Below, one piece after another: positions 11,963 to 64,000 of a DNA stretch of 64,000 nucleotides. Source of the stretch: Candidatus Aenigmatarchaeota archaeon (GTDB taxonomy: Archaea > Aenigmatarchaeota > Aenigmatarchaeia > CG10238-14 > SCSR01); assembly GCA_039000425.1 (NCBI GenBank), contig JAWBPV010000002.1:14303-78302 (forward strand), read 5' to 3'. Within the stretch, counting starts at the first letter, position 1. The number at the start of each line of letters is the position of its first letter. The notes under the pieces are model-generated. The model made no database searches, was not told the origin of the DNA, and saw nothing but the letters and a program-made list of their open reading frames with translations. A program made the position numbers and the translations under genes.

Positions 11963-11971
11963 ACTGCTTAT

Positions 11972-13104: not shown

Positions 13105-13163
13105 ATGTACCTCCCTTCATAACGTTGCTTTAGTAAAATTAAAAATAAAATCAATAGGGAACA

Positions 13164-14612: not shown

Positions 14613-14616
14613 GTTA

Positions 14617-14641: not shown

Positions 14642-14757
14642 GTTTTAATCCGCAAAATAAATTTAGGTAATAATTATTTAAAAACCATGAATTAATCACA
14701 AAAAAACGCTACAAAGCTAAAATAAAGGAAGAGTGAGGCCACTCTCCCTTTTTATTA

Positions 14758-17143: not shown

Positions 17144-17155
17144 TATAGTTTTAAC

Positions 17156-17180
17156 CTCCTTTTCTTTTCTTATAACTTTT
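17156..17180 (-). promoter_or_regulatory. conserved early promoter/RBS module (instance 6)
   Basis: The minus strand reads AAAAGTTATAAGAAAAGAAAAGGAGG. Confidence 0.45.
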
Positions 17181-17235
17181 CTAACGCACATTTTTTTGTC
17201 ACGGAAAAACGGCTAGCTAAAAATTAATTAATTTA

Positions 17236-30948: not shown

Positions 30949-31303
30949 TGTTTTTTAGTTTGTCTGAAATTACTTTTAAATTGTCTTTAACTACTGTTTC
31001 TTCAACCAGTTTTGCGCCTTTTTTCCCAATCCAAATTAAAACTGGAGCCATTTCCAGCTCCGGAGACGCTCTTGAGCAAAAGACTATAGCTAATTTATTC
31101 TCGCCTGGAATAGACGTAATCCATGCTATATCGGAATAGTTTAAATCTTTTAAAAGAAAATCAATAAGATACAATTTGACACGATATACGCTTTCTGAGC
31201 CATCAAAAGATTTGCAAATAACCGTTCCTTCTGGATTTTCATTTGAATTATACAGTTGAATTGTTGTTTCGATAATATTTCTTATTTCAGTTTCCGTCCA
31301 CAT
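30932..31303 (-). CDS. hypothetical protein
   Basis: 123-aa ORF. Confidence 0.45.
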   Translation of the reverse strand: MWTETEIRNIIETTIQLYNSNENPEGTVICKSFDGSESVYRVKLYLIDFLLKDLNYSDIAWITSIPGENKLAIVFCSRASPELEMAPVLIWIGKKGAKLVEETVVKDNLKVISDKLKNNDSWH

Positions 31304-37860: not shown

Positions 37861-39276
37861 ATGACATTTTTAGTTCTAGGAAGCGGAGCTGATATACAAT
37901 TGCTGAAACAATTAAGAGATGAAGGAAACAAAGTTTACTATTGGCTTCCTCAGAAATTTTGGTCGGAATGGGATGAATTGTTTAAAGAATGGGAGGTTAA
38001 TTGGATAAAAGAATCCGAATTAAGAATTCCACATGACGTTGATATTGTCGTATACACTTTTGTTGGAGCTAGAGAACTAGCTGATAAAGTTTCCAAAAAT
38101 TATCCTTTCTTTGGAGCGGACAGCCGCATGCAAGAATTAGAGCTAAATCGTGAGCTGGGCAAAAAAGTGATGCAAAAATTAGGAATAAAAATTCCTCGAC
38201 GTTTCTCAAGCAACATAGATGTTGCAATAGAAACAATAAAACGAAACAAAAAGCCTATGGTTGTAAAGCCTTATAATAATCTCCCAGTATACACAACGGC
38301 TGTTCCATTTACCTATGAGGATTCAATTGTTATCTTAGAAAAAATTAAAAAGCATTTTCCAAATGCAACTGTACTTTGTGAAGAAAAAATAAACGGAGTT
38401 GAAGTTGGAATTGAAACATTTTTTGATGGAGAAGATTTTCTCTACCCAATTAACGTCAGTTTCGAGCATAAACCCGCCTATGAGCTGGATCAGGGGCCTT
38501 TGACTGGCGAAACTGGAACTTTAATGTTTTATGAAAACAGTCCATTATTCTATGAAACTCTGAATAGAGCTAAAGAATTGTTCAGGAGACTAAATTATCA
38601 TGGAGATATTTGCATTGGGCTGATTGTAGATATGGAGACGAAGATTCCTTACGGATTGGAATGGACTTGTCGTATGGGATATCCTGAGATTCTGATTCAA
38701 ATCAACGCTCTTAAGATAGAATTGGGACAGCTTATTTATAACACAGTATTTCCACAGCCCCAAAAAGAAATGCCGGTAGATGATATTTTTCTCACAGGCG
38801 TCGCTTTAATGGGGGGAGGTTCTCCCTTTGAAATGACTTATAAGCAATATGGGCGTGGATTTATGATTCATGGATTGGATGAACTTGAGGATGGTATACC
38901 AGTCATTAGTAGAACAATGATAGCTTCTGCTTCTTATAAAAATGGTAAATTCTTCACAGGCGAATATGATGATCGTCCATTGGTTATAATTGGCAAAGGA
39001 TATACTGCTTATGAAAGTATTATAGATGCCTATAGGTTCATGCGTCACGTTAAATGCATGAATGCTTTTTATAGAACCGACATTGGAGTCAAATATGTCA
39101 CACACGATTCAAAGTTCCTCTACGAATGTGCGTACATAAACAGAGATCACTTTGTAAGGAGTTATTTGCCCGAGTTTGATCCAAGATTAACTCTATTGAA
39201 AACAAAAATTATGGAAATAAAAAAAGAAGGAGGCTTGAAAGAATGGTTAATTGGAAATGCTCTATTCCGATCTTAA
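37861..39276 (+). CDS. PurD-like (glycinamide ribonucleotide synthetase-like) ATP-grasp ligase with C-terminal extension
   Basis: LVLGSGADIQL N-terminus. EEKINGVEVGIETFFDG...EHKPAYELDQGPLTGETGTL (cf. the PurD DHKR...GPNTGGMGA block). GLIVDMETKIPYGLEWTCRMGYPE (cf. EFNCRFGDPE). Confidence 0.65.
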   Translation: MTFLVLGSGADIQLLKQLRDEGNKVYYWLPQKFWSEWDELFKEWEVNWIKESELRIPHDVDIVVYTFVGARELADKVSKNYPFFGADSRMQELELNRELGKKVMQKLGIKIPRRFSSNIDVAIETIKRNKKPMVVKPYNNLPVYTTAVPFTYEDSIVILEKIKKHFPNATVLCEEKINGVEVGIETFFDGEDFLYPINVSFEHKPAYELDQGPLTGETGTLMFYENSPLFYETLNRAKELFRRLNYHGDICIGLIVDMETKIPYGLEWTCRMGYPEILIQINALKIELGQLIYNTVFPQPQKEMPVDDIFLTGVALMGGGSPFEMTYKQYGRGFMIHGLDELEDGIPVISRTMIASASYKNGKFFTGEYDDRPLVIIGKGYTAYESIIDAYRFMRHVKCMNAFYRTDIGVKYVTHDSKFLYECAYINRDHFVRSYLPEFDPRLTLLKTKIMEIKKEGGLKEWLIGNALFRS

Positions 39277-39340: not shown

Positions 39341-41131
39341 ATGGAAACTCTAATTTATAAAACAACTCCTATCGTGTTTTTCAACGAACATGCGGTCAAA
39401 AATGTAGTAAGTGTAACTGTAACTTATCAGATTAATCGTTTCGCTCGAGCAATTATAGCTTTACCTGCAGTATCCGCACTACTTGATCTACCATTTTTGA
39501 CACATATTCGTGTTGGGGCCAAAATTGAAACAGGAAAAGGTTCCTGGGACATCTGGCTCGTTGATGGATTTCCCGAACAAATTGTCAAACGAGATCCGTA
39601 TGTTTTCATAACAATAGTAGATAAACATTACATTTTAGACACTATTCCTTTAATAGGATTAGAAGATCCTATGCGAGCTGCAGTCATGAGTTCTATTTAT
39701 GGAGATGGAATAATTAACATTGCATTACCTGGTGCTTCTTCCATAAACCAATGGCTTAATTGCTCCGACTGGGTATCTTCACAAGACATGACAGTACAAT
39801 TTAAAGAATTGGTCGAAGAACGCATAACCAACTATCTTTCTGATTTTATTAAAACACATCAAATATATGGCCTTTACCCTTTCATAGATCCAGCAATTGA
39901 TAGAAATTTTTTGGATGCTCAATTATCTCTAAATGTGATAAATAGGCTCAATGTTTTCTCGGGGGATTCAGTCTGGACTCTTATACGACAGGTTATTACA
40001 ACTCTGACGGGTTATCAGTTTATACCTATTCCAATCAAGATGTTAGGAATAGAAGAAAGCGCAAAAGGAATGTCTGCTGTAATTTATTGCTCACTGATAA
40101 CCTTTCCAGTTACCACAGGAGCAACTCCAAAAACGCAAGTTGTCCCTCTTCATTTTTACAACTATTCTTTTTCTGCAGATAAAACTCGTAATGTTACAAG
40201 AATGGTTCTATATAATTTTGTAGGAATGCCTTTACCCTCTACATCGGAAGATATATCATCGGGAACTGAATCATCAGGATGGTTTCTATTAGTGCCTAGA
40301 GAGCTTCACAACGGATTCAAAGGGGAAGTTCAAGCGTCAAGAGAAGAACAAATATGTGTTCCAATTATATACAAAACAATGACATATGAAGAAGTTTGCG
40401 ATGGGATTATCACGGACATATCGTCAATAGATCTCCCACTATACAACGTCTATCAGGTTCACTCCAGTGAAAGTCCTTTGAAAGGACAGGATCTGGAAAA
40501 AACAATGCAATTATGTCTGGACAAGGCCGAGTTAGAGTTTAAACTTAAGAAACTCCAGTTTCGGACATTAACGTTGCGAGGTATTTTTTCTCCTTTTCTG
40601 GTTTGTGGAATGCCTCTAATTGCAGTAGAAAAAAGACAACCTTTAAGTTTCTTTCAGGGAATTCCTTTTCAAATTATTCATGAAATTAGTGATAGAGGTG
40701 CAGTTTCAACAATTGATTGTGGCTATGCTTACTATTGGGAAGAGTTTTCCGAGAAAACTTCACGAGGACTTCCTGGACGGTTTGCGGTTTTCCCTTGGGG
40801 AAATCTGTCAACAGATGAAAAATTGATATTACCACGTACTACAGTGAAAAGCTGGAATGATTTTGTAAAGACTATTTTAGGCACAGATTGCTTGTCAAAA
40901 AATGTAAAGGAAGTAATTGAATATTTAAAAAGCATTTTAAGCATTTCGCTTGAAGGTTTTTTTGGCAGATGCGCAAACTTCGCAAAGACGATAGGAATCG
41001 CAGATAGGCATAAATTTAGCGAATCACAAGTAAAAATTGTTGATGTACCATTAAATGCAAAACCGAGACAAGAGCTGGTCAAAAATATTGTGAACTTATT
41101 GAATGCAGCGGAGATTATAGAACTAAAATGA
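39341..41131 (+). CDS. hypothetical large protein (possible virion component)
   Basis: 596-aa ORF. No recognised motif. Confidence 0.55.
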   Translation: METLIYKTTPIVFFNEHAVKNVVSVTVTYQINRFARAIIALPAVSALLDLPFLTHIRVGAKIETGKGSWDIWLVDGFPEQIVKRDPYVFITIVDKHYILDTIPLIGLEDPMRAAVMSSIYGDGIINIALPGASSINQWLNCSDWVSSQDMTVQFKELVEERITNYLSDFIKTHQIYGLYPFIDPAIDRNFLDAQLSLNVINRLNVFSGDSVWTLIRQVITTLTGYQFIPIPIKMLGIEESAKGMSAVIYCSLITFPVTTGATPKTQVVPLHFYNYSFSADKTRNVTRMVLYNFVGMPLPSTSEDISSGTESSGWFLLVPRELHNGFKGEVQASREEQICVPIIYKTMTYEEVCDGIITDISSIDLPLYNVYQVHSSESPLKGQDLEKTMQLCLDKAELEFKLKKLQFRTLTLRGIFSPFLVCGMPLIAVEKRQPLSFFQGIPFQIIHEISDRGAVSTIDCGYAYYWEEFSEKTSRGLPGRFAVFPWGNLSTDEKLILPRTTVKSWNDFVKTILGTDCLSKNVKEVIEYLKSILSISLEGFFGRCANFAKTIGIADRHKFSESQVKIVDVPLNAKPRQELVKNIVNLLNAAEIIELK

Positions 41132-41904
41132 CATTGCCGAAACAGGAAAAAGAATTATTGCTATGGAAAGAATGGCGTCGTACAGGAGACGAAGAAAAAC
41201 TGGAAGAGTTGATGAACAGCTTACGTCCTCTCATAATGACTGCAGTGAACAAATGGAAAGGAAATCTTCCTCAAGATATTTTAACTTTTCAAGCAGAAAA
41301 TTTAGCACTAAAAGCATTACATACTTACGATCCAAAGAAAAAAGTTGCTCTTTCTACGCATGTTATGAATAATTTGTTGCCATTGTCTCGTTTTGTATAT
41401 ACACATCAGAACATTGGAAGAATTCCTTCAGAAGTGCGTATTGCAAAAATAAATACACTAAAAACGGCAATTGAGGAGTTTCAGGCTAAATATGGTAGAT
41501 ATCCAAATGCCGAAGAACTTTCTGATACCCTAGGCATGTCCCCCAAGCAAATTCAGAAGTTTTTCAAAGAATTGCATCCCGACTTATTGGAATCCTATGC
41601 GATTGCCCCTATTGCTGTAAAAATGGATCCTCAAACTGAGATGATTGTAGATCAATTCTACTCGTCATTGTCGCCAATTGATAAGTTCATTTTTGAGCAT
41701 TCCGTGGGCTATAAAAACAAGAAAAAGTTAACTATACGGGAAATTGCCACTAAATTAAATAAAAGTACCTATGAAGTTCTACAACGAAGAGAGGAAATAG
41801 CTCGCAAACTTTCAGAATTTATAGAACAGTATGAAAAAGCTGGGATTTCATTTGAAAGAAAACGAATATCCGCTTCAATTGAATCGCTACTGGAGGAAGA
41901 ATGA
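41128..41904 (+). CDS. sigma-70 family RNA polymerase sigma factor (phage-encoded)
   Basis: Region 2-like LRPLIMTAVNKWKGNLPQDILTFQAENLALKALHTYDPKKKVALSTH. Region 3-like RYPNAEELSDTLGMSPKQIQKF. Region 4 HTH LTIREIATKLNKSTYEVLQRREEIARKL. Confidence 0.7.
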   Translation: MTLPKQEKELLLWKEWRRTGDEEKLEELMNSLRPLIMTAVNKWKGNLPQDILTFQAENLALKALHTYDPKKKVALSTHVMNNLLPLSRFVYTHQNIGRIPSEVRIAKINTLKTAIEEFQAKYGRYPNAEELSDTLGMSPKQIQKFFKELHPDLLESYAIAPIAVKMDPQTEMIVDQFYSSLSPIDKFIFEHSVGYKNKKKLTIREIATKLNKSTYEVLQRREEIARKLSEFIEQYEKAGISFERKRISASIESLLEEE

Positions 41905-48529: not shown

Positions 48530-51500
48530 ATGGATTTCAAAAAGTATATAGCTGATAGAGACTTTTACTCAGCTGAAACTGCAAATTATCCACAATATCT
48601 TTTGATTGGAGATGGTCTGCTTTCTATACCATTGATAATTGTAGATAGAAATAATCTCTATGTATATATATCGCCATTTGAATTCATTCAGAATGGTACA
48701 ATCTGCAAGATGCTTAAAATGCAAAAAGTAAAATGCAGTCAATTGGAAACAGGAAAAACTTATTATCTCTGCGTGGACGTGAATACCACTTCAGATAACA
48801 ATCCTCCCAGATTCTATGTTCTAGAGAGAATATTGCCAGGTTTATTACTAATTGCAGAATTGGTAATTTTAGAAACTGATGTTAAAATCAATTATCCACA
48901 GATTGTTCATTATAAAGGATTACGGGAAAGCACAAAGGAAGCATTTGATACGGAAGTTCAAGTTCAAGGATATCTTTACTATGATAAAGATAATAATGTT
49001 ATAATTGGCGAAGATGTAACTTTAAGATATGGAATCGATGTTTTTAAATTCGAAAGAATTCATTTTAAACCAATTCTTTTTCCAGAAATTCCAGCAGATA
49101 TAATTCCAAACCATTTAATTATATGGGACAGGGAATTTTGTCAGATTCCTTGGTCGGCATTTTTAGCAAATAATATAACACAGGAATATAACTACGTTTC
49201 GAGTTTTTGCGACAGCACAACCGTTATCCTTCCAGCCTATAATAGAATACTTCATTTTCACTGCGCGCAAGAGTTATACAATCCTCATTACGCTAGTATC
49301 TCATTATGGTCGGAAACGCTTTCGTATCCACCTCATTCACATGAATTTCAACTATTTGCAGAGACATCTATAAAACTCAAAAGCAGAGATAATATTGTTG
49401 TTGGAGTTTCGACTACTACCGCTGTACATGGAGGATTTATTTTCAGAAGATTTATAGTAGAAAGTCCAACTTCAGTTTCAATTAATTATGATACTTATTA
49501 TTTTGCTGAAGATAGTTCCAATATTAGATATAATTTTGCAATTGACGACACAAAACTTTATTTAATCTTTAGAAGAACTGTAGGATTAACACCATATGTA
49601 GAAATTTTAAAATGGGATTACATGCAATTTGGAGCTAAAACTGTTAAATCTTACCCTGGAATGGAAGCTACAGACGTTTATATTTGGTATGATCAAGAGC
49701 TATTGCATTGCTTTGTTTATAATGAATCTGATCAAACACTCATGCATTTCATTTTATCTGCTTCAAGCCTTGCAGAAATAAAACCACCCTCTGTATTCAT
49801 TCAACCTTGTTATAGACCTTTTCCAATAGTGCACAAAGGAAGATTTATGCTTGCATATCAAACCTCTGCGGATTCACCTTTGTACTTCTTTGACGGATCT
49901 CGTATTCGTACAATAGACGAAACTCCAGGAAATTTTCAATTTGGATTTCAAGAAGGGATATTACTTGTATGTAATCCTTCTACTGGAAAAATTTATAAAG
50001 TCTATTTGGACAAGATAATTGAATTTCCTGCTCCTAGTGGACAAGAGCACTTGTTGAGAATTTCGGCACTAGGAGCTGTATGGGATACTGCCAGAGATAC
50101 TTCGACCACTCCACATAAAACGCGCTTAGTTCTAATTTCTGAAAAAAACTTAGAAATACCAAATTATTTGCCTGTTATTGGAGCAGTTCATGCAAGCCAA
50201 AATAATCCAGCTTTCCTCCCAAATAAACCAATGGGGCATGTTGTCATTGGCGATCCGGCTTTGCTACATGAAGCCGAATTGAATATAGATAAATTATACG
50301 AATATATCACACAAAATGCAGATGGTTCATATACAGAAGTTGAAATTAGAGGTAAATTAAGAGTAAGACCAGGAACTGTTTTTCCTAGACTAAAACTTTC
50401 TGGTGGTGAATTAATAACTGATAGATTGCGTACGACTTCTGTAATCTCAAATACACAATATAGCTCAGATGATCAGAAAACTTTTCAATTGCTAAACACT
50501 ACTTTACAGGCGCATGGTATCTGTCCAGGGACTATAATACAAAGAGAGAATTTCACACAACGAGTAGTAACTATAGATATAACAAATAGAAGATTTACAC
50601 TTGATGCTCCATTAGGAGGGAGTTCTTCTTCGCCTTTGAATGTTCGAAATGATATTGTCTTAGAAAATATGACGATTCGGCATCCGCAATCTACAGGAGT
50701 CGTTACAGGAGATAATTTAAAAATAAAGAATAGTGAATTTTTGAATGATTTAATTGTGTCCGGAGGAATGATATATGCTACAAACAGTAATTTTAAATAT
50801 GTAAGCGCAAGCAACTCTCATGTAGGATTTTATGCCTGTAATTTAGAAAATATACAGCTTTTAGGAACGATTCCTTCATATTACATTATGCAATCTTTTG
50901 TAGGCACTTCATTAACTAATACAATCAGAGGTTCTACAAAAATTGAAAATTTTAACTATCCAAATAATAGATTTGTCTGGCTAGGTGGCGACACACCATT
51001 ACAAATATACACTTCAGGCACAGATAATGTTACATCAATATCCAGCTATACTCACGCGTCTACCACGACCGCTTGCGGCACTTACAGTAAAGTTTATTCT
51101 GAACGCGTAGCAATAGGGAACACACTTGAAATTACCGCTTCTAGAATTCCTCCAAGCACTGCTTACGGAATATATATGAATATTGATGCTCCATATGCAT
51201 ATGGACTTCATCTTTCAAGTAGTCCAAATGATCAAACCACAGGCCTTTTTATTCGAAGCAATACAGGAGCTATAATTTCTGGAATAACTCAAGGCATCTA
51301 TGCATATGGATCTTCCTATGGAGGACGTTTTGTAGCGCCTAATACAGGTCTCTATGTTTCTGGACTAATAGCAATAGAAACGAATGCAACTGGAACTTCT
51401 GCTAAAGGAGTATCAATTTCAGTCACAGGAAATAGTAGCTATGGAATTTATGCCAATGTTAGTGGAGCTGGAACTAGAGGAATCCACGCAAGTGCTATAG

Positions 51501-52411
51501 GAAGCGATGCTTATGGAGCTGTGCTTTATGGACAATATGCCGGAGTTTATGCGAGTGGAAGTTCTTATGGAGGGATTATGGTGGGAAATCCTGGAATTTA
51601 TGCATCAGGATCAGTTGGAATCGCAGCAGTTGCAACTGGAGATTCTGCTAAAGGATTATCAATTTCAGTCACAGGAAATAGTAGCCATGGAGTTTATGTA
51701 AATGTTAGCGGTACTGCAGCTAGAGGAATTCAAACAAGTGCTACGGGATCCACTGCTTATGGAGCTGTACACTATGGACAATATGCCGGAGTTTATGGAA
51801 GTGGAGGTTCTTATGGAATCATAGCAAGAGGGAGTACTGGAATTGAGGTATCAGGATCCATTGGAATATATGGAAGAGGCAGCACTGGAATTTATGCATC
51901 AGGAGCTACTGGAGTTTATGGAACAGGACCTGTAGGAATTTGTGCGACAGGATCTACTGGAGTCTATGCATTAGGATTTCCTGCAATTGCAACTAAAGGG
52001 TCAGTAAAAATCAATGAAGGAAGTTTGGTCGTTGAAGAAGATATCGATTGCCAGCGTCATTTGACCATATGGGGAAGAACACAAATAATACACACTTCTG
52101 CAGAAGTTACTATTCCTTATACATTAGGCAGCGGGGCCGCTAGATTAACTACGCGGCTTACTCGAGGGGTTGAAATTCTTATGACCAATTCAGATGCATC
52201 CACGTCTCACTACACCATTCTTTATACAGATGCTACTGCAGGGGGAATGCACTATGGATTATATTGTGACCATAGTACCATTAGAATATATCCCACTTCG
52301 GAAGCTAGTATTACATCTTGGACTGGAGCAGCAGATGGAACTATATGTATTGATACTGCAGGACACTTATATTATAAATCAAATGGAACATGGTATCGAG
52401 TTAAAACTTAA
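48530..52411 (+). CDS. tail fibre protein with Gly-rich repetitive region
   Basis: 1293 aa. The C-terminal third is built of GxYAxG/GS(T)G.. repeats. Contains the tandem duplication at 51395-51890. Confidence 0.65.
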   Translation: MDFKKYIADRDFYSAETANYPQYLLIGDGLLSIPLIIVDRNNLYVYISPFEFIQNGTICKMLKMQKVKCSQLETGKTYYLCVDVNTTSDNNPPRFYVLERILPGLLLIAELVILETDVKINYPQIVHYKGLRESTKEAFDTEVQVQGYLYYDKDNNVIIGEDVTLRYGIDVFKFERIHFKPILFPEIPADIIPNHLIIWDREFCQIPWSAFLANNITQEYNYVSSFCDSTTVILPAYNRILHFHCAQELYNPHYASISLWSETLSYPPHSHEFQLFAETSIKLKSRDNIVVGVSTTTAVHGGFIFRRFIVESPTSVSINYDTYYFAEDSSNIRYNFAIDDTKLYLIFRRTVGLTPYVEILKWDYMQFGAKTVKSYPGMEATDVYIWYDQELLHCFVYNESDQTLMHFILSASSLAEIKPPSVFIQPCYRPFPIVHKGRFMLAYQTSADSPLYFFDGSRIRTIDETPGNFQFGFQEGILLVCNPSTGKIYKVYLDKIIEFPAPSGQEHLLRISALGAVWDTARDTSTTPHKTRLVLISEKNLEIPNYLPVIGAVHASQNNPAFLPNKPMGHVVIGDPALLHEAELNIDKLYEYITQNADGSYTEVEIRGKLRVRPGTVFPRLKLSGGELITDRLRTTSVISNTQYSSDDQKTFQLLNTTLQAHGICPGTIIQRENFTQRVVTIDITNRRFTLDAPLGGSSSSPLNVRNDIVLENMTIRHPQSTGVVTGDNLKIKNSEFLNDLIVSGGMIYATNSNFKYVSASNSHVGFYACNLENIQLLGTIPSYYIMQSFVGTSLTNTIRGSTKIENFNYPNNRFVWLGGDTPLQIYTSGTDNVTSISSYTHASTTTACGTYSKVYSERVAIGNTLEITASRIPPSTAYGIYMNIDAPYAYGLHLSSSPNDQTTGLFIRSNTGAIISGITQGIYAYGSSYGGRFVAPNTGLYVSGLIAIETNATGTSAKGVSISVTGNSSYGIYANVSGAGTRGIHASAIGSDAYGAVLYGQYAGVYASGSSYGGIMVGNPGIYASGSVGIAAVATGDSAKGLSISVTGNSSHGVYVNVSGTAARGIQTSATGSTAYGAVHYGQYAGVYGSGGSYGIIARGSTGIEVSGSIGIYGRGSTGIYASGATGVYGTGPVGICATGSTGVYALGFPAIATKGSVKINEGSLVVEEDIDCQRHLTIWGRTQIIHTSAEVTIPYTLGSGAARLTTRLTRGVEILMTNSDASTSHYTILYTDATAGGMHYGLYCDHSTIRIYPTSEASITSWTGAADGTICIDTAGHLYYKSNGTWYRVKT
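51395..51890 (+). repeat. ~246-nt (82-aa) tandem duplication inside the tail fibre gene
   Basis: gctaaaggagtatcaatttcagtcacaggaaatagtagc... at 51401 recurs at 51647 with ~88% identity (SAKGVSISVTGNSSYGIYANVSG... / SAKGLSISVTGNSSHGVYVNVSG...). Confidence 0.6.
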
Positions 52412-54997: not shown

Positions 54998-55159
54998 TAA
55001 TAAAAAAATTAAAAGAAACAGCCTCGCCGAGCTTCAAATAGAACTGCAGACTATTCGTTTAGCTCTGGATTTTCAGCAAAAGATAATATCCCATCTTGAG
55101 AAACTATTTGACAAAGAAAAATTGTATGATAAAGTTATATAAAAAATGGAGGTCTGACA

Positions 55160-56506
55160 ATGGATTTCGGAATAATTGACTTTTATGATGATTTAACAAA
55201 CACTTATCTTTCGCCCTTTCTCAAAGTAGCAGATTTGCCTTCAAAAGATAAAAGCAAATTAAAAGACTCTGATTTTGCCCTAATTATCAGAGATAGCCAT
55301 GGCAACGTTCAAAGATACTACCCAATCGCCACTGAAATAGATACTCAGCTTTCATTGGATTATTTTGCAAAAACTGGTCATAAGCTGCCTCCAAGAGCGC
55401 GTCAGGTTGCTGCATATTATCTCAAAAAATATGCTGAAACTTTTGGACTTCCTGTACCTAAGTATATAGAAAATGTTCTTGAAGGAATCACTGTAGTCGC
55501 TTCCAATGTAGTTGATCTCTCCGAAGTTCCCGAAGAAGAAACAGAAGAAGTAGATTATCTTCTTCCCGATGCGAAACTATTTCCTGTAAAAAGTGATAAA
55601 GATTTGCAAAAATATATACAAAGATATAGTGAAATCTTTAAAAATTTAGACGAAGACCAAAAAAAGGAATTTTCCTTCAATCTTGTGCGATTATCTTCTG
55701 TTTATAAAATACCCGATTTGCCAAAAGAGATTTATGAATATGCAAGGAAATATTCAGATAAAAAAATATCAGAACGGCTTTCCGAAATAGAAACAGAAAA
55801 AGAAGCATATTTGAAACAAAGTGCAAAGTCCAAAGAGGTATGGGAAAATCTAACTCCAGAGCAGAGATTTCGTTTAGCTAAAATGCTAAAGGAAGCTCAA
55901 ATGAAAAAACCATTCGTTTCTCCAGCAATTGCCGATGCCTATACTAACTTTGATATCACTCCCTATACTGCACTCAATCTACAAAAGCGTTATGAGATGC
56001 TTAAACATTATCAATTCAATCTGGAGAAATATGCCGAAATGCGAGATGAAATTCAATCAATTGCAGAAGGACTCAGGATTGCGCGTGCCACCAAGCAGAC
56101 TACAACTGAATTACTTCTAAAATTTGCTCATATACTGAAAAAATTTGACGAAAAATATGGACTTGATAAGTATTACGGAAAAGAAATAGACGATTATTAC
56201 ATTACTTTCAGCAAATATCCAATGGTCGTTTCGGTGTTTTCTAAATCAAAAGTAGATATGCTGGATTCGCTTGAAAAAATCGCTGAAGAACGATCCATGG
56301 TTCCAATTCTTGAAATGCCGCAAGTGTTAGCTATGGAAAAACTCAGCAGTCTGCCCATCGGCGTGTATAGAAAATTCTTTAGAGAACCTCTGGCCACACA
56401 ACTTAAAATGGAACCTCTTCTTATGATAAAAATTGCAACCACAATAGATCATCCATATTTTCCTCTGATAAGCAGGTTTTTCAGAATTATAAAATCCATG
56501 CTATAA
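55160..56506 (+). CDS. hypothetical protein
   Basis: 448-aa ORF. No Walker motifs, so not an obvious terminase. Confidence 0.55.
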   Translation: MDFGIIDFYDDLTNTYLSPFLKVADLPSKDKSKLKDSDFALIIRDSHGNVQRYYPIATEIDTQLSLDYFAKTGHKLPPRARQVAAYYLKKYAETFGLPVPKYIENVLEGITVVASNVVDLSEVPEEETEEVDYLLPDAKLFPVKSDKDLQKYIQRYSEIFKNLDEDQKKEFSFNLVRLSSVYKIPDLPKEIYEYARKYSDKKISERLSEIETEKEAYLKQSAKSKEVWENLTPEQRFRLAKMLKEAQMKKPFVSPAIADAYTNFDITPYTALNLQKRYEMLKHYQFNLEKYAEMRDEIQSIAEGLRIARATKQTTTELLLKFAHILKKFDEKYGLDKYYGKEIDDYYITFSKYPMVVSVFSKSKVDMLDSLEKIAEERSMVPILEMPQVLAMEKLSSLPIGVYRKFFREPLATQLKMEPLLMIKIATTIDHPYFPLISRFFRIIKSML

Positions 56507-57136
56507 ATGTCCATTGAAAAATTGCTGGAAAAACCAGATCTTACTCCCATTGCACTCAACGAAATTCTAAATCGTGTTTACAATACCGAATGGATTATAA
56601 CGCCTATTCATCCTTTGATTTTGCATATAGAACGCATATTTAATATTAAACTTCCTCAAGAAAACATAGACAAAATTGGAGCTATAAAGGTATTGCTTAA
56701 CAATGATAGCTTTTGGGATCACTGGCATATATTTGAAAAGGTTGGAGTTGCATTCAACGATCATATAGTCCGCACGGATATAATGCAGCCTCTTCAAGCA
56801 TGCGAAGCAATATATACGTTTAAAACGTCCAGGTATTTCCGAAAAGAAAAATTTTCCGATGAAGTTATAGTTTATGCATATTTCTGTTGCCTTGAAGACA
56901 ATTGTATTCTTCCCGATTTAGAATTCATAGAAATGGTTCCCGAAAAGATGTATGCTCCTTTTAGCAATATTCTTAATGAGCTAAAAAAGCATGTAAAACA
57001 CTTGCAAAAACTGGCGGATGTTAATAAACTACCAGAAGAAATGCGAGCTCAGGCAATTGAATACTTGAAAGTGCAGACCTATTTAGCTCTAAAAGAAAAC
57101 GCTACAAAGGAGCAAATAAATGCCATCAATACCTGA
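56507..57136 (+). CDS. hypothetical protein
   Basis: 209-aa ORF. Confidence 0.5.
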   Translation: MSIEKLLEKPDLTPIALNEILNRVYNTEWIITPIHPLILHIERIFNIKLPQENIDKIGAIKVLLNNDSFWDHWHIFEKVGVAFNDHIVRTDIMQPLQACEAIYTFKTSRYFRKEKFSDEVIVYAYFCCLEDNCILPDLEFIEMVPEKMYAPFSNILNELKKHVKHLQKLADVNKLPEEMRAQAIEYLKVQTYLALKENATKEQINAINT

Positions 57137-59915
57137 AAAAACCTTCTTCAAGTATCCCGACAAATTCTTTGAGCCGCTCAATTTGCAATTGCCTACAATT
57201 CATAACGTTCTAGCTTGGTGCGAATTCTTTACCTTGACGGATAGCTTTGTTAACAGTATTATTACTAAACTTGCAACTTACGTAATAACAAATATCGTCA
57301 CCGAACCGAAAGATACACCTACATCAAGAAAGCTGATAGACCTTTTTGAAAAAATAAATATTTATGAGTTATTGGCACAATTTAATTTCACATTACTTAC
57401 TTATGGGAATGCTTTTGTAAGCATTTTAAAGAGCTTTAATAGACAACTTCAATGCACAAAATGTGGACAAACATATAAGATTAATGCAGTCAAGCAGCTA
57501 TCCATTCAAAATTACCAAATCGTAGGTAGATGTAATAATTGCAATTTACGTCGCACTTTTAAAGTAATTGACACTCCTGTTGATGACGTGGAAGAAGTAA
57601 TCATAAAATTTTGGGAACCCAAAAATATCATAATAGATTCCGACGTTCTCACCAATAAACACAGATATATTTATGTAATCCCAAAGGAAATTAGAGATAA
57701 AATTAAGAAAATTGAACGCACGCCGACAAGATACGTTCCTGAAGTCGCTCACTATGAGGAAGCACAAAAATTTCTTTCAACACTCCCAACAGAATTTTTA
57801 ACTGCATTAAAAGCACAAAAAGCGTTAGTTTTTTCTCCACATGACATTTTCCACGCTAGACGTCCTGGATATTATCCTCTTTGGAATTCTGCTTGGGGAA
57901 TTCCATTGGCATTTCCAGTATTAAGAGATTTATATACTTATTACCTCTTAAGACAAATTCAAGATTACCTTGTGAGAGAACGTGGAATGCCTCTTCGATT
58001 CATATTTCCGCAGCAAGCCCCACAAGTTGCATCTATCATAGATGTGGCAAAATTTAACAAGATGATTGTTGAAGCCTTCCGCGCCTGGGAGGAAACTGGA
58101 GAAGAAAGAATAAGAGGAATTCCCGTTCCAATTGGATATCAGACAGTTGGAGGCGAAGGATTAGGATTCAACCTAGAAGAGCTTCTAAGTATGATGCAAA
58201 GAAGAATTGCTATTGGGATGCAGGTTCCTCTTGAGTTTGTGTTTGGAGGATTAACATGGTGCGTGAATCCTGATACTTATATTTTTACCAATAAAGGAAT
58301 GTTGCAATTGAAGGATCTCAAAGCAGGAGATTTCACAAACATTGCAACACACAATGGACATGCGCCAATAAAATATGTTCACTTTCCTGGAAATAAAGAA
58401 CAACTCAGAATTAAAACTAAACTTGGAATTGACTTACAATGTTCTCCCGACCATCATATTTTTGTCATTAAAAACAATTCTATAGTTGAAAAACGAGCAG
58501 CTGAAATCAAATATGGAGATTATGTTGCAATAAAAGCTGCAGATATCTGGTCGGATACTATTCCTCAAATAAACTTTGCAGATTCAAATGAAAAGGTATC
58601 ATTTCCACGTGAATTAAGTCTGGAATTAGCTCGCCTGCTTGGTTATGTGATTTCTAAGGGAGAAATAATAAAAGGAAAGATTATATGTAAATTTTCAAAA
58701 AGGAAACACGTTAAAGACTTTGTAAAATGTTGCAACAAGATATTCAACTATCATCCTCTCCAAAAAATGTATCAGCTCGAATTAGAACCTCCTATTTCAG
58801 AATTCTTAATTTATCTTTGTGGCAATTTAAATCCAGAAACCAAACAGGTACCTACGGTAATAAAAAGAGCTCCAAAAGAATTCGTTATTGAATTTTTGGA
58901 TGCTTTGCTTGCAGAAAGTAAAAAAAGATCTTCTGTCATTTACAGAACTAAATCCAAAATTCTCGCAAAAGAAATACAATTATTGCTGTTGAACGCAGGA
59001 ATCATTTCATATCTTCATTCGGGTAGAATCTATAAACTCCAAATCAAAAACAAACTCCGTCCTAGAAATAATTCCAAGTTAACAAAAAAATATATCAAAG
59101 CCAAAGTTATTGATGTTTCTAAAGAGCCTTCTGTTGAAATGATGGACTTGACTGTTTTGAGAGATCATACCTATATTGCAAATGGAATTATTACTCACAA
59201 TTCAGGCTCTAACGTATCATTAAGAATGCTAGAAAACAATCTTCGTTTCTTAATCAATGCAGACAATTTATTCCTAAACTATATCAAAAACCGCATAGCT
59301 GATTTGTATGAATTGCCCGATCTAAAAGAAATTAATCTAAGGCTTGCTTCAATTCGGATGGCCGATGATATAGCCAGGCAACGTCTGTTAATTGAACTTC
59401 TTGAAAAAGATCTTGTATCGGAAGTGACCGTACTGCAGGAGCTAGGACTTGACTTTGAAAAAGAATCTGAGAATATAGAAAAAGGTATTAAAAAACGGGG
59501 CCATAGAATGAAATTGAATATGATTGAACAAGCAAAAGCCCAGCGTGAAGCACAAAAAGAACTAGCTAAACTGGAATTAGAAGTACAGCGTATGCAGCAG
59601 GCAATGTTAAAAGCAGTTGGAATCACTTGGCAGGAATTCACTCAATTGCCTCCAGAATATCAGATGCTTGTGCAGCGTTTGATCACACTTCCTCCACCCG
59701 AACGTAATGCAATGATAGATTTTCTAAAACGCAATGCTCCAGTCTTGATGCGTACTCTTGAAAAAATTATTAGAAAACTTGAAACTGCAATGGAATCTCC
59801 TCCTGAGGTGCCTCCACAAGAAGCTCCTTCACCTAGTGTTCCTACGGAAGGCACTCCAGCGGAAGCACCATTACCTGAGAAACTGCCACCAAGAAGGACG
59901 GAGAAACCGGTATGA
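57120..59915 (+). CDS. large virion protein (possibly portal) interrupted by an intein
   Basis: 931 aa in total. The extein would be ~617 aa with a coiled-coil and a Pro/Glu-rich C-terminus. The host-protein identity is not established. Confidence 0.6.
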   Translation: MPSIPEKTFFKYPDKFFEPLNLQLPTIHNVLAWCEFFTLTDSFVNSIITKLATYVITNIVTEPKDTPTSRKLIDLFEKINIYELLAQFNFTLLTYGNAFVSILKSFNRQLQCTKCGQTYKINAVKQLSIQNYQIVGRCNNCNLRRTFKVIDTPVDDVEEVIIKFWEPKNIIIDSDVLTNKHRYIYVIPKEIRDKIKKIERTPTRYVPEVAHYEEAQKFLSTLPTEFLTALKAQKALVFSPHDIFHARRPGYYPLWNSAWGIPLAFPVLRDLYTYYLLRQIQDYLVRERGMPLRFIFPQQAPQVASIIDVAKFNKMIVEAFRAWEETGEERIRGIPVPIGYQTVGGEGLGFNLEELLSMMQRRIAIGMQVPLEFVFGGLTWCVNPDTYIFTNKGMLQLKDLKAGDFTNIATHNGHAPIKYVHFPGNKEQLRIKTKLGIDLQCSPDHHIFVIKNNSIVEKRAAEIKYGDYVAIKAADIWSDTIPQINFADSNEKVSFPRELSLELARLLGYVISKGEIIKGKIICKFSKRKHVKDFVKCCNKIFNYHPLQKMYQLELEPPISEFLIYLCGNLNPETKQVPTVIKRAPKEFVIEFLDALLAESKKRSSVIYRTKSKILAKEIQLLLLNAGIISYLHSGRIYKLQIKNKLRPRNNSKLTKKYIKAKVIDVSKEPSVEMMDLTVLRDHTYIANGIITHNSGSNVSLRMLENNLRFLINADNLFLNYIKNRIADLYELPDLKEINLRLASIRMADDIARQRLLIELLEKDLVSEVTVLQELGLDFEKESENIEKGIKKRGHRMKLNMIEQAKAQREAQKELAKLELEVQRMQQAMLKAVGITWQEFTQLPPEYQMLVQRLITLPPPERNAMIDFLKRNAPVLMRTLEKIIRKLETAMESPPEVPPQEAPSPSVPTEGTPAEAPLPEKLPPRRTEKPV
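58260..59201 (+). mobile_element. intein (314 aa) with a LAGLIDADG-like endonuclease insert
   Basis: Starts at Cys (FVFGGLTW|CVNPDTYIFTNKG, block A). Block B ...CSPDHHIFV. Ends ...DLTVLRDHTYIANGIITHN|S (blocks F/G, terminal HN, +1 Ser). Central LLGYVISKGE and FLDALLAESKK resemble degenerate LAGLIDADG motifs. Confidence 0.7.
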
Positions 59916-60196
59916 AGTCAAAAAACCGTCCAGATATATATAAAGACATATATGTTGATTCCTTATTGAAAAAGCTGGAAACCAAAGAGATCAAAGTCCA
60001 CGTTAGACAATTTAACATGAACAATGAGGAAGACCGAATGGAATATGAAAAATTGCGAGAACAACTTTTAAATCCTGACACCAATATACATTTAAATGAA
60101 AGACAGTTCTTCTATGATAAAAATGGCAATGCGTATATTTTTGTAGAATGGATGGAATTTATTGATAAGGGAGGTAAAGATGGCGCAGATAATTGA
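59912..60196 (+). CDS. hypothetical protein
   Basis: 94-aa ORF overlapping the previous stop. Confidence 0.45.
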   Translation: MKSKNRPDIYKDIYVDSLLKKLETKEIKVHVRQFNMNNEEDRMEYEKLREQLLNPDTNIHLNERQFFYDKNGNAYIFVEWMEFIDKGGKDGADN

Positions 60197-60536
60197 AATA
60201 GAGGTTCCCTTTTTAATCTCAGTCAACAAAATAGTTAAAGAACAACCTACAGCTGACACAAGCGTAACCTACGTATTAACCCCAAAAACGCAGCTGCTGA
60301 ACGCAATAAACATCTATGAGATTGATCTTGTAGCAAGTGGTTCGGTGGACGTTTCTGTCGCTATCCAACATGGCAACACTTTATATCAAATTTACAATTC
60401 TTCTGGTTCACAAACCTCTTTTCGCATTCAATTAAAAGCTCCTCTTTTTCAGGACGAAACAATGAGAATAGCTATAACTGCAGCGACAAGTTTCACTTCT
60501 AAAATAAGAATCATAACAAATTCATTTGTAATATAA
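60180..60536 (+). CDS. hypothetical beta-rich protein
   Basis: ATG 60180 lies ~6 nt after GGGAGG. The track start 60162 is upstream of the RBS. Confidence 0.5.
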   Translation: MAQIIEIEVPFLISVNKIVKEQPTADTSVTYVLTPKTQLLNAINIYEIDLVASGSVDVSVAIQHGNTLYQIYNSSGSQTSFRIQLKAPLFQDETMRIAITAATSFTSKIRIITNSFVI

Positions 60537-60540
60537 GGAG

Positions 60541-60930
60541 GTGAAAATGACTGAAATCAATCTGAAAGACGAAATGAACCTTGACACCTTATTGATCAAA
60601 GGACGAGTTGAAAAAGAATACTGGATAATTCCAGGCAAATATCGTGTGACTTTTCGGTCACTTCTGGTAAATGAAAGTAAAGAACTTAGACAACAAATAC
60701 TGCAGGGAAATCTCAGCGATTTGGACGTTATGGTGTTATATCTAAAAAAACAAATAGTTGAAATCAATGGAATTGCTTGTACCGAAAAAGAAGTAGAGGA
60801 AAAAATAAACAATATGGCCTCTCCACTGTTAGATAAAATTCTTCAAGCGTTCACTAAATTCAATGAAGAAATAAATAACATGTTCGTTGACGAAGATAAA
60901 AAAAAATCTGGGAAGACTACAGCTCAATAG
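60541..60930 (+). CDS. hypothetical protein
   Basis: 129-aa ORF with AAGGAGGTG 5 nt upstream. Confidence 0.55.
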   Translation: MKMTEINLKDEMNLDTLLIKGRVEKEYWIIPGKYRVTFRSLLVNESKELRQQILQGNLSDLDVMVLYLKKQIVEINGIACTEKEVEEKINNMASPLLDKILQAFTKFNEEINNMFVDEDKKKSGKTTAQ

Positions 60931-60980
60931 ATGATTTAATAATTAACTTCTTTTTCCGGATAATTAACAAAGAAGAAGGG

Positions 60981-61199
60981 ATGCTCGATAAAATTGCGCT
61001 CAAAAAAATTATTTTATATCTAAAACTAATCTGGTTTTCTTCTTTAGCGGTGCTTGCAGCAGAAGGCGAATACAAAAGCAAAAATTATACACGTTTGAAG
61101 TATCTATTGTTCCCGCTTGAAAAACCTTATATAGAGAAAATAGAAAAAGAATACTTCTTCTGGGAAAAATTCTTTGGAGAAAGATTTAAAAAGCCGTAA
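60981..61199 (+). CDS. small membrane protein
   Basis: 72 aa with one TM (LIWFSSLAVLAA). Confidence 0.4.
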   Translation: MLDKIALKKIILYLKLIWFSSLAVLAAEGEYKSKNYTRLKYLLFPLEKPYIEKIEKEYFFWEKFFGERFKKP

Positions 61200-61219
61200 G
61201 AATGTGATAGAATTTTCTT

Positions 61220-63892
61220 ATGCCTAATGGAAGATTCAATTTAGGCGAAGGTTTTGGAGAATCCCTCAATGTAAAACTTGATATTGACACTCAAGAAGCT
61301 TTAGCGAAATTAGAACAATTCAAAGAATATGCAAAACAAATACTGAGTCAAGCGCAAGTTCCTTCAAGATTAGTTCCTACTCCTTTTCCTGAAGCTATTC
61401 CATCTGCAATTCCTAGAATCACTACATATCCTGAACTTCAAGGACTTATACCAACGGAAAGAGCTTATCCTAATCTTGTTGGTTTGCAAAAAGAAAGACA
61501 ACCAATAGATATTAATCTTTTAGCGGCATATCAGCAACAAATGATGACAATGCAATTTCAACAAAGAATGGCAACTTTTTATTATCAATATACACAAGCT
61601 ATGCCAAGTCCGATAGCAGCTCCGGTATTATATCAGCCAATGATGCCTTCTCCTTATATGCCTCAAATACTAACACCTGCTTTTCCTGCACAATATCAAG
61701 TTGCAAGAAGAGCAATGGAATGGATCCAACCACAAACTGCTGCCGAGCTTGAACGAGTTGCTCGTTTAACTACAGAAATATTCCAAAGAGCCTATACAGC
61801 CGCAGGCTTAACCCGAGGCGATATAGCTCGTCTGCGAAGAGAGGCCGATATAATACATCAAACCCTTCTAGAAGTTTATGGATGGCAACAAGCATCTCGG
61901 ATAGCATACGAGACGGGTTATCAAGCAGCTCTATTTGTAACCGGTGGTGGTTTAGTAGCAAGGGCAATAGGAGGAACAGCATTTGGAGTAATGGGAGCTG
62001 AAATGGCAGGAATAGATGTGTATGAAAGATTACTTCATTATACAGGAGGAACTTTTGCTGAGAGAGCTGCTCGTGGAGTCATTCCGGGAGATACAGCCGC
62101 AGATCGAAGACGCCGAGAACGTTTGGTAAAAGCGGTAGAATTTGAACGATTTATGGCCGAGCAACTTAGACAAGTGGCACCTACAGTTGTGCAGCCTTTT
62201 GCAGGCATATATAGACCTCTTTTTGGATTTGGATTAACTCCCGAAGAAATGGCAGGATGGATGGAACTTTATACTATACTTACAAGAGAAAAAACATTGA
62301 AAAAACTTTCCCAAGTTACAGGAAGACCAGTTGCAGAAATTAGAAGTGCATATGGTTTGACTCCGCCAGGAGTTATTGAACAATATTTAGTGTCAAAAGA
62401 ACAAAAGTTTAAAGCCCCATGGTCAAAAAGTACACGAGAAGAACATGAAGAATTTATCTTTGACAAAATAGCTTCAGCAGCAGCCACTCTAGGACAATTA
62501 GGAATGTTACAGAGTTTTGATAGAGATGTATATCTAACTTTAAGAGCATCTTATAATGCCGAATTTGCAAGATATATGATGCAATTTCGTGAATTAGGTG
62601 CGAATTTAGAAGACAGTTATAGGCTAGCTAAAGAAGAAATAATGAACCAACATGATTTCACTTTGCGTGCTCTTACGCTTATGCCTACACGTGTGGGAAT
62701 TCGTCCTTTAGAACAAGTCGTACAGTATCCAATGGAAGCATATCGGATGTTGAGACAAATGGAAGCAAGACGACAATTGGCTCCAATGGCTCTAGCTCCT
62801 GCATATGAAGCATTACTTCCTTATGTAGCAGTACCATGGGTATCTGGACCGGAAGTCTATTTAAGTGCAGCAAAGCTTATGCAAAGTTATTTAAACACCT
62901 TTGATTTAATTCGGATGATGCGTCCTGGCGTTATAGAAGCATTTGGAGGAGCCGCTAACGCAATGATGGCTTTGCTCCAAACACAATCGCAGTATCTTCA
63001 GCATCCATTTGGGCAGCTGACCTCTTTAGCTTTCGCTGCCGGATTGCGTGCCGGGCCAACTCAACAGATAACAATGCCACAAGTATTTCACTATGCCGCT
63101 CGTGCAATTGCCACTCCACAAGATTATCTACGATACATTGCAAGAACACCTGAAATTAGAGCTAATTTATTTAGAGATGAACAGTTACTATCCTTTATGA
63201 AACCACAAATGCAGTTCATGGCCAGAGCGTTAGGCATATCCACTACTGACGAGGAAGCAATGAAAGGAATGATGATGCACTTTTTTGGATTTACCTCGCA
63301 GCAATCGGAATTAATGTATTCATATTTATTCAAGTATGGTATAGGTTCGGATTCAAGAGAATCACTTGCATTATTGCAGCAAGGAAATGTGCTTAAGAAG
63401 CTAAAAGCATTAACAGGAACTACGGATCTTTTCATCAATCGTGAAACTTTCGCAAAAAACTGGGAATTAATTCAAAAATTAAGCAGAGCACAAAGTTATG
63501 ATTTGACCTCCTATGGCATTTATACCGAAGAATTATTGAGAAGACGAATTGCCGCAATTGCGGGAAGAGAAGTTCCTGAATTGCCAGAGATATTGATAAA
63601 AATTCTAAAAAGATATCCTGGTGAAGAAAGATTTGAAGCAATAAAAACCGAACTTGAAAAATATCAGAATTTAATATCAGCCGAAAAACGTGAAGAACTA
63701 CTCAAGCTATTGGTTCCACTTGTTCGTCCGGGAGAAGCTCCTCGTCTATCAGACTTTCAAGACAAACAGCTAAAAGAAGCAAAAGAAAAAACTAAAATGA
63801 CTACGGAAGATTGGCTTGAAAAAATCTATGGAGTATTGGAAGATTTGGTCAATAGTATAAAAGGAGGACAGACAAGATGGCAACCAATGTAA
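61220..63892 (+). CDS. large Gln/Met/Ala/Tyr-rich protein (virion internal/scaffold-like candidate)
   Basis: 890 aa. Low-complexity YQQQMMTMQFQQRMATFYYQYTQAMP region, then helical. Function unknown. Confidence 0.55.
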   Translation: MPNGRFNLGEGFGESLNVKLDIDTQEALAKLEQFKEYAKQILSQAQVPSRLVPTPFPEAIPSAIPRITTYPELQGLIPTERAYPNLVGLQKERQPIDINLLAAYQQQMMTMQFQQRMATFYYQYTQAMPSPIAAPVLYQPMMPSPYMPQILTPAFPAQYQVARRAMEWIQPQTAAELERVARLTTEIFQRAYTAAGLTRGDIARLRREADIIHQTLLEVYGWQQASRIAYETGYQAALFVTGGGLVARAIGGTAFGVMGAEMAGIDVYERLLHYTGGTFAERAARGVIPGDTAADRRRRERLVKAVEFERFMAEQLRQVAPTVVQPFAGIYRPLFGFGLTPEEMAGWMELYTILTREKTLKKLSQVTGRPVAEIRSAYGLTPPGVIEQYLVSKEQKFKAPWSKSTREEHEEFIFDKIASAAATLGQLGMLQSFDRDVYLTLRASYNAEFARYMMQFRELGANLEDSYRLAKEEIMNQHDFTLRALTLMPTRVGIRPLEQVVQYPMEAYRMLRQMEARRQLAPMALAPAYEALLPYVAVPWVSGPEVYLSAAKLMQSYLNTFDLIRMMRPGVIEAFGGAANAMMALLQTQSQYLQHPFGQLTSLAFAAGLRAGPTQQITMPQVFHYAARAIATPQDYLRYIARTPEIRANLFRDEQLLSFMKPQMQFMARALGISTTDEEAMKGMMMHFFGFTSQQSELMYSYLFKYGIGSDSRESLALLQQGNVLKKLKALTGTTDLFINRETFAKNWELIQKLSRAQSYDLTSYGIYTEELLRRRIAAIAGREVPELPEILIKILKRYPGEERFEAIKTELEKYQNLISAEKREELLKLLVPLVRPGEAPRLSDFQDKQLKEAKEKTKMTTEDWLEKIYGVLEDLVNSIKGGQTRWQPM

Positions 63893-64000
63893 CGAATTAT
63901 ACTAACTCTCCCACACCTCCTCCCCCGGCTTTTCCAGAATCTCCTCCTTCACAAGTTTCTCCAATAGAAGTATCCGAACAACCTACTTCTATAGATATAT
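63877..64000 (+). CDS. hypothetical protein, 5' fragment (runs off the window)
   Basis: ATG 63877 (MATNVTNYTNSPTPPPPAFPESPPSQVSP...) is open to the window end. Confidence 0.35.
   Translation, partial: MATNVTNYTNSPTPPPPAFPESPPSQVSPIEVSEQPTSIDI

Follow-up and report, generated by a model that had tools for sequence, protein, structure and literature searches.

We analysed a 64,000-nucleotide stretch of DNA (hereafter the window) from a Candidatus Aenigmatarchaeota archaeon assembly (NCBI GenBank GCA_039000425.1, contig JAWBPV010000002.1, positions 14,303 to 78,302 of the forward strand), in which one plus-strand gene in the open reading frame list, at 57120..59915, appears to encode a phage portal protein interrupted by an intein. 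The predicted product of 931 amino acids (plus stop) is identical to the database protein P0001 and falls into three parts. An N-extein of 380 residues (57120..58259, plus strand; C-terminal end ...PLEFVFGGLTW), delimited by alignment with intein-free homologues, is followed by a class 1 intein of 314 residues (58260..59201, plus strand), which runs from Cys1 to a terminal His-Asn and was delimited by family models, an alignment gap and a profile of related inteins. The C-extein, of 237 residues (59202..59912, plus strand), begins with the Ser+1 of SGSNVSLRMLEN and was placed by alignments and by the secondary structure of an AlphaFold2 model. Joined, the two exteins make a protein of 617 amino acids (380 + 237).

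The intein and its boundaries

The intein opens with the TGC codon of Cys1, from 58260, and closes with CAC AAT (His-Asn), to 59201; TCA at 59202-59204 encodes Ser+1, and the 942 nucleotides sit between Trp380 and Ser695 of the precursor. The match is far beyond chance, three curated family models recognising the isolated intein above their cut-offs: Pfam PF14890 Intein_splicing (62.8 bits, E 4.3e-17, cut-off 35.8; 58.7 bits in the full protein), NCBIfam TIGR01445 intein_Nterm (25.3 bits, cut-off 24.5) and NCBIfam TIGR01443 intein_Cterm (22.2 bits, cut-off 15.6). A phmmer search of PDB sequences matched it to PI-PkoII (E 1.4e-06), the PhoCDC21-1 intein, VMA inteins and PolII inteins. A word-indexed protein search with the intein alone came back empty, missing even the identical P0001, and we take this as a limit of the index and not as a true absence.

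The splicing blocks are all in place. Block A, CVNPDTYIFTNKG (intein residues 1-13; 58260..58298, plus strand), supplies the Cys1 nucleophile, which aligns with Cys1 of 21/21 related portal inteins described below. Block B, S62-P-D-H65 (58443..58454, plus strand), is a variant of TxxH in which Ser replaces Thr, as it does in several of the inteins aligned with it; its His65 pairs with the block B His of PI-PkoII, of the PhoCDC21-1 intein and of the displayed related inteins. Directly before Ser62 lies a further cysteine, Cys61 (58440-58442), near the catalytic Cys1 in sequence. Blocks F and G, DLTVLRDHTYIANGIITHN (intein residues 296-314; 59145..59201, plus strand), were located by TIGR01443 and read D296-L-T-V…H303…A-N-G-I-I-T-H313-N314, ending in His313-Asn314; they align with vyDLqVpehHnFIANGifvHN of the PhoCDC21-1 intein and with the related portal inteins. 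Ser+1 then opens a conserved SGSNVSL motif.

The decisive test, however firm these scores, is the comparison with homologous host proteins. Searching with the spliced extein recovered 37 homologues without the intein (499-703 amino acids, 24-32% identity), of which 17 were aligned with the window protein; in that alignment the 314-residue segment is a single clean gap between GGLxW and SGSNVSLRMLEN. This junction, GGLxW|SGSNVSLRMLEN, is the best-conserved block of the family, and the residues flanking the gap are invariant or near-invariant (G376 and G377 before it, G696 and V699-E705 after it). We regard it as practically certain that 58260-59201 is an intein, and its assignment to class 1 follows from the block A, B and F/G residues, the +1 nucleophile, the clean absence in homologues and the scores above curated thresholds. 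An earlier note, made from the letters of this DNA and its reading frames, had placed a 314-residue intein in a protein of about 617 residues at exactly these coordinates, and every string that it quoted is present. It had also named what would speak against an intein, namely a missing HN/+1 Ser boundary, a missing block B or homologues that keep the segment as integral sequence; boundary and block B are both there, the insertion site is conserved and not one of the 17 aligned homologues retains the segment. The ligated junction is predicted to read ...EFVFGGLTW-SGSNVSLR (also written IAIGMQVPLEFVFGGLTWSGSNVSLR), and the corresponding fused, intein-less DNA would be …GGATTAACATGG|TCAGGCTCTAAC… or, in a further form, …GTGTTTGGAGGATTAACATGG|TCAGGCTCTAACGTATCATTA….

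The interrupted protein

The spliced extein, searched as a single sequence or as a 38-sequence profile, had no significant match in Pfam, PHROGs or PDB sequences; the remaining sequence matches were noise and a weak zinc-ribbon match, and megablast of 55000-64000 against a phage collection gave no match. An AlphaFold2 model of the spliced extein, built from the 38-sequence alignment, has a mean predicted local distance difference test (pLDDT) score of 79.7, and every one of the best 50 Foldseek matches to this model in the PDB is a portal or a portal-vertex complex, with probability 1.00 (E 1e-08 to 1e-05; template modelling (TM) score normalised to the target, 0.28-0.56). The matched structures include the portals of HFTV1 (E 1.2e-08), T4 (gp20), lambda (gpB), T1, T7 and N4. 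In BFVD, the list of matches is headed by Bacillus phage G gp14 and by proteins with portal names, and it includes the PaBG portal, and most of the named matches are portals. Consistent with this, tblastn against cultured phages matched the extein to Vibrio phages D181, D148 and D69 (E 6e-38) and to gp204 of Salmonella phage Arash, which is annotated 'portal protein' (E 2e-34) and has been found in purified virions by mass spectrometry with 93% coverage and 32 unique peptides (PMC10585845). Because the fold and the homology to the virion-verified Arash gp204 (23% identity) agree, the extein is very probably a portal protein, and it represents a predicted portal family that is not described by sequence. 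The earlier note had guessed at a portal from position, size and a coiled-coil tail; the guess holds, but fold and homology have replaced those grounds.

In the model, the intein is inserted at a lower-confidence connection (spliced residues about 371-383) between helix 352-366 and the long helix 384-415. We infer that these helices are stem α5 and wing α6 of the portal fold, which would place the insertion in the tunnel-loop region; a literature search combining intein, portal and 'tunnel loop' returned no papers. On this assignment, the N-extein would contain the wing, stem and clip up to the α5-α6 connection, and the C-extein would continue with α6, its long helix, and then the crown helices. 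The tail of the C-extein is disordered and Pro-rich and ends in the family motif PLPExxPPRR.

The portal also carries, in its N-terminal part, a four-Cys zinc ribbon (C112, C115, C138 and C141; CxxC…CxxC; 57453..57542, plus strand), recognised from the alignments. C112 and C138 do not vary in either the 18-sequence or the 38-sequence alignment. C115 is invariant among the 18 sequences and at least 90% conserved among the 38, and C141 is at least 90% conserved among the 18; the portal-family profile gives a weak bL33-like match to the ribbon (E 0.016). An embedded zinc ribbon is unusual for a portal.

Related inteins and the endonuclease domain

In an AlphaFold2 model of the whole 931-residue precursor (mean pLDDT 79.0), the intein part is predicted with confidence, most of its 10-residue blocks having pLDDT values of 81-97, with dips to about 70-80 near residues 601-610 and 641-660. 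Foldseek matched the precursor best to endonuclease-bearing inteins: TliVMA 7qsu leads in the PDB (E 2.6e-19, TM score (target) 0.70, root-mean-square deviation 4.3 Å), TliVMA 7qss, PhoVMA 7qst, PI-PkoII 2cw7, PI-SceI and PI-PfuI are further matches, and portals rank after them. This agrees with the LAGLIDADG-type endonuclease domain that the earlier note had proposed. The domain, degenerate in the ways described below, occupies intein residues about 121-276 (58620..59087, plus strand) and was delimited by the precursor model, Foldseek and LAGLIDADG_3, which scores 23.1 bits on the isolated intein, marginally over its cut-off of 22.5, and 20.7 bits, below the cut-off, in the full protein. Most 10-residue blocks of this region (precursor residues 501-656) have a pLDDT above 90, and the two-lobe α/β LAGLIDADG fold is kept, with helices 501-513 and 586-596 each heading a lobe. 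Lobe 2 has one strand before the second helix, and one strand is apparently missing at the start of the lobe.

An exhaustive HMMER search with the window intein returned 2118 relatives at E ≤ 0.001, none of which, besides the protein itself, exceeds 40% identity, and the best 150 were scored with the portal profile. Of these 150 closest relatives, 22 lie in the window portal family (they were recruited by similarity to the window intein, and such counts do not equal site occupancy in the family): 16 at the identical site (GGxxW|C…HN|SGSN), 5 two residues upstream (GGL|C…HN|SY(A/S)G) and 1 in an N-terminally truncated fragment whose N-junction is unreadable. All 21 inteins at the window site or the adjacent one are 493-517 amino acids long. 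The ten that were displayed in the alignment all have the motif 1 form LARLLGYLxSEG/AEG and an extra region towards the end of the endonuclease domain, and they have FLxxYFEGDG (F(E/D/S)GDG) as motif 2, except P0047 (GDR). Scanned alone, the P0050 intein matches LAGLIDADG_3 with 81.1 bits and HTH_17, a helix-turn-helix (HTH) family, with 30.9 bits; Pfam confirmed HTH_17 in P0050, P0047 and P0049.

The window intein is 27-37% identical to the related portal inteins over its whole length, slightly more than its extein is to theirs (22-31%). Across pairs, which are not independent, intein and extein identities correlate only moderately (Spearman 0.49), too weakly to tell co-divergence apart from transfer. 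Scored per intein, the portal-family relatives are the best among those found. Three non-portal proteins, P0045, P0046 and P0048, had looked like carriers of the closest inteins and were rejected, because the score of each protein added up two to three inteins; a single one of these inteins reaches 45-83 bits, versus about 105-122 bits in total for the single-intein portals.

The same family is interrupted elsewhere as well. At least five insertion points (LRKAQE|, SDP(Y/F)|, RWRxD|, GGL| and GGLxW|) fall within about 100 residues of the portal, with P0047, P0049, P0039, P0087, P0143, P0061, P0090, P0181 and P0074 as members. P0047 (2007 amino acids) and P0049 (2052 amino acids) have three LAGLIDADG inteins each, which make up about two thirds of the protein, and P0143 has a 167-residue insert at RWRxD| with intein-like ends that resembles a mini-intein. 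As judged from these alignments, the portal family is an intein hot-spot. The five insertion points probably lie in the stem, clip and tunnel region of the portal, a placement in keeping with the general preference of inteins for conserved motifs that contact nucleic acids. A limited literature search found no description of a multi-site, multi-intein portal family.

Set against these relatives, the window intein appears to have lost much of its homing machinery. A profile of the 21 inteins matches it with E 1.7e-69, and the match covers profile positions 1-300 (E 8.4e-59) and 465-510 only; nothing in the window intein corresponds to positions 301-464, the region that contains the HTH. The corresponding deletion scar lies at intein residues about 264-270 (59049..59069, plus strand), where the relatives have about 164 extra profile positions including HTH_17, and no HTH match was found in the window intein, versus the 30.9 bits in P0050. 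Motif 1, LARLLGYVISKGE (intein residues 123-135; 58626..58664, plus strand), was placed by alignment with PI-PkoII, in which its counterpart is LAKLLGYYVSEG, and with the related inteins, for which the profile consensus is ArllGyLvaEGs. In this alignment aEG has become SKG, with Lys133 (AAG, 58656-58658) in place of the catalytic Glu. Motif 2 is reduced to a remnant, FLDALLAESKK (intein residues 212-222; 58893..58925, plus strand): the profile alignment opens a six-residue gap over the F-E-G-D-G core (FLrayFeGDGgvedv versus FLDAL------LAESK), and MAFFT agrees. As a result, the metal-binding Asp/Glu is absent at the end of both LAGLIDADG motifs. In a phmmer alignment Glu219 had faced the catalytic Asp of PI-PkoII, a pairing that we dropped, given that the far stronger family-profile alignment shows a deletion there. 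The earlier note had called the endonuclease degenerate for a Lys at the catalytic Asp of the first motif. The Lys is indeed at the catalytic position, as PI-PkoII and the 21 related inteins show, but the residue expected there is Glu in the relatives and not Asp, and the decay goes well beyond that substitution, with the GDG core deleted and about 164 profile positions, including the HTH, missing. The intein has a GC content of 32.1%, and 24.8% at third codon positions, both inside the range of the neighbouring genes; this composition check gives no sign of recent arrival, and the neighbour-like values fit long residence.

Taken together, these data make it highly likely that the gene encodes a phage portal precursor with a resident, splicing-competent and homing-dead intein of decayed LAGLIDADG/HTH ancestry. 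The gene at 57120-59915 would specify the portal (the head-to-tail connector) of an uncultured large tailed phage, made as a 931-residue precursor. Class 1 splicing would begin with an N-S acyl shift at Cys1 and trans-esterification to Ser+1, and cyclisation of Asn314, helped by His313, followed by an O-N shift, would leave the 617-residue portal. We expect the portal ring to assemble from the spliced protein only, because the insertion interrupts the most conserved motif of the family. The ancestor would have belonged to the family of roughly 500-residue inteins with a LAGLIDADG endonuclease and an HTH, at the same site or two residues upstream, and its homing machinery would have decayed (Glu to Lys, GDG deleted, HTH region deleted) while the splicing residues were all kept. 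Such an endonuclease would no longer bind both catalytic metals, and its accessory DNA-binding region would be gone; the element should therefore persist only by vertical inheritance, aided by the lethality of imprecise deletion. We consider the endonuclease likely to be dead, and descent of the window intein by deletion is probable, if somewhat less firmly so, with loss here, rather than gain elsewhere, as the inferred direction of change. The element is thus most likely a splicing-competent, homing-dead relic, a candidate for the degeneration stage of the homing cycle.

Several observations weigh against parts of this account. Two acidic residues remain near the lost catalytic positions, Glu135, two residues past Lys133, and Glu219 in the motif 2 remnant, and residual nicking by the window intein is possible. 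The searches gave no close relative (more than about 35% identity) whose site is empty, and an IMG/VR scan with the N-extein for such relatives also returned none; for this reason, the timing and direction of the change rest on parsimony, 21/21 related inteins keeping the extra region. The tunnel-loop placement follows from the order of secondary-structure elements only, and the recruitment of the related inteins by similarity, mentioned above, applies to every count drawn from them.

The residual acidic residues raise the alternative that the intein is still mobile, its endonuclease working as a double-strand cutter or a nickase through Glu135 or Glu219 (the 'AES' residue). A two-lobe LAGLIDADG fold predicted with high confidence, a LAGLIDADG_3 score slightly over the Pfam cut-off on the isolated intein (23.1 versus 22.5 bits) and the phmmer placement of Glu219 opposite the catalytic Asp of GDG in PI-PkoII are what one would expect of an active nuclease. 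However, that placement has a domain i-E (independent E value) of 0.017 versus 8.4e-59 for the family profile, which leaves a gap at FeGDG and puts Glu219 downstream of it. All displayed relatives keep E-G in motif 1, and all but P0047 keep G-D-G. With the HTH-containing region of about 164 profile positions gone and LAGLIDADG_3 under its cut-off in the full protein (20.7 bits), continued mobility seems unlikely. We consider it similarly doubtful that the short form is ancestral, with the HTH region and a canonical motif 2 gained later by the roughly 500-residue relatives. A single short member is known, and the nearest solved structures, TliVMA and PhoVMA, have 360-430 residues, so that shorter endonuclease-bearing inteins do exist. 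By contrast, all 21 inteins are 493-517 residues long although they sit in portals as little as 22-31% identical to the window portal, and 10/10 displayed related inteins bear the extra region. In those of the first 14 non-portal relatives examined that had both stretches detected, about 110-215 residues separate the endonuclease core from block F, compared with about 30 in the window intein, and a Lys at a metal-binding position and a gap over GDG are lesions of the kind expected from loss.

The resident, splicing-competent intein that we favour would also have to be set aside if no splicing took place, leaving either a disabled portal (a pseudogene) or a Hint domain capable of cleavage only, as in a bacterial intein-like (BIL) domain. 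The Ser in place of Thr in block B might point that way, and splicing of the window intein is itself a prediction. Tailed phages cannot package DNA without a portal, and BIL domains are typically without a +1 nucleophile and precise extein continuity. Here, both the nucleophile and the continuity are present, the 931-codon frame is open, and Cys1, the block B His, the Asp and His of block F, His-Asn and Ser+1 are intact and line up with their counterparts in solved active inteins; when all six frames of the window were scanned with the profile of the portal-family inteins, no second match appeared. Failure to splice is thus very improbable. At the other extreme, the dead endonuclease domain may be more than debris, and the intein could have been domesticated: by splicing conditionally it might act as a timer or checkpoint for the maturation of the portal and the initiation of procapsids, with a redox-sensitive pair of Cys1 and Cys61 as one conceivable switch. 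More broadly, the portal family could be among the most intein-infested of structural proteins, with channel motifs as selected homing targets in roughly 130-210-kb phages that encode an RNA polymerase. We offer this as speculation that has little chance of being right.

Genomic setting and comparison with known systems

Further genes were recognised elsewhere in the window. A 363-residue reading frame at 10266-11357 (plus strand) has a Cas12f1-like TNB domain (Pfam PF07282, E 3.2e-16), which suggests a TnpB/IS200-605-type mobile element inside a phage genome. Two minus-strand gene pairs, at 14758-17191 and 31287-33694, each combine an AAA+ ATPase (AAA_5, MoxR-like) with a DUF2201 protein (DUF2201_N metallopeptidase-like and VWA-like), a module that appears to be duplicated in the phage. 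Also on the minus strand are a family A DNA polymerase with a 3'-5' exonuclease domain (17874-19793) and, near it, a 325-residue protein with a UDG-superfamily domain (20388-21365), neither of which has an intein-sized insertion. The plus strand encodes a GARS-like ATP-grasp protein (PF01071, E 1.9e-11) at 37861-39276 and a phage sigma factor (Sigma70_r3; phrog_351, E 4.5e-13) at 41128-41904. Most other large reading frames at 39-64 kb, including that of a 1293-residue protein at 48530-52411, have no family match.

For annotation, the result turns a 931-residue 'hypothetical protein' into a predicted portal precursor and gives a recognisable portal gene to a sequence-dark family of large phages, relatives of Arash and of Vibrio D181, D148 and D69; the 38-sequence profile could serve to annotate this portal family. 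One family here seems to contain, at the same site, full-size LAGLIDADG/HTH inteins, a truncated copy with a predicted dead endonuclease and many empty sites, together with the mini-intein-like 167-residue insert elsewhere, and in the window intein nature would offer a clear example of the homing cycle at its degeneration stage. The 314-residue element and its larger relatives are also predicted to be candidate splicing tools. Textbooks already cover the homing cycle and inteins whose LAGLIDADG domain has degenerated, and current concepts are left unchanged.

The nearest cultured counterparts are Arash gp204 and the corresponding gene of Vibrio D181, D148 and D69, which are 23-24% identical to the extein over about 75% of its length (E 2e-34 to 6e-38) and belong to genomes of 180-187 kb. 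The match in a single uninterrupted tblastn piece and the 579-residue length of Arash gp204 imply that there is no intein at the window site. Both in Arash (10908-15485) and in the homologue locus L001 (12351-18512), the portal gene is followed at a short distance by an RNA polymerase gene, which in L001 encodes a 2053-residue fused beta-beta' protein; the Arash RNA polymerase is annotated as a beta subunit and is the most abundant virion protein by mass spectrometry (PMC10585845). No RNA polymerase gene was recognised downstream of the portal in the window, and the 890-residue reading frame that holds a comparable place (61220-63892) matches nothing in Pfam or PHROGs.

The VMA inteins, PI-PkoII, PI-SceI and PI-PfuI have their LAGLIDADG domain between blocks B and F of the Hint domain, as the window intein does, but they are 10-20% identical to it and sit in other exteins and hosts, and the window copy is without the catalytic acidic residues. 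Inteins in portal genes have been described before: they interrupt the portal gene in mycobacteriophage cluster C1 (Kelley et al. 2016, PMC5050341), and those of actinobacteriophage portals form five separate phylogenetic groups (bioRxiv 10.1101/2025.01.02.630785). The actinobacteriophage portals match InterPro IPR009279, whereas the window extein matches no Pfam, PHROG or PDB sequence family. Portal inteins as a kind are thus already known, and the addition made here is the portal family and its status as a hot-spot. Within that family, the related metagenomic portal inteins (P0050, P0062, P0123, P0063, P0047, P0049 and others) share the splicing blocks, the Hint domain and the LAGLIDADG domain with the window intein; they have 493-517 residues with the HTH region present, whereas the window intein has 314 and has lost both the catalytic residues and the HTH.

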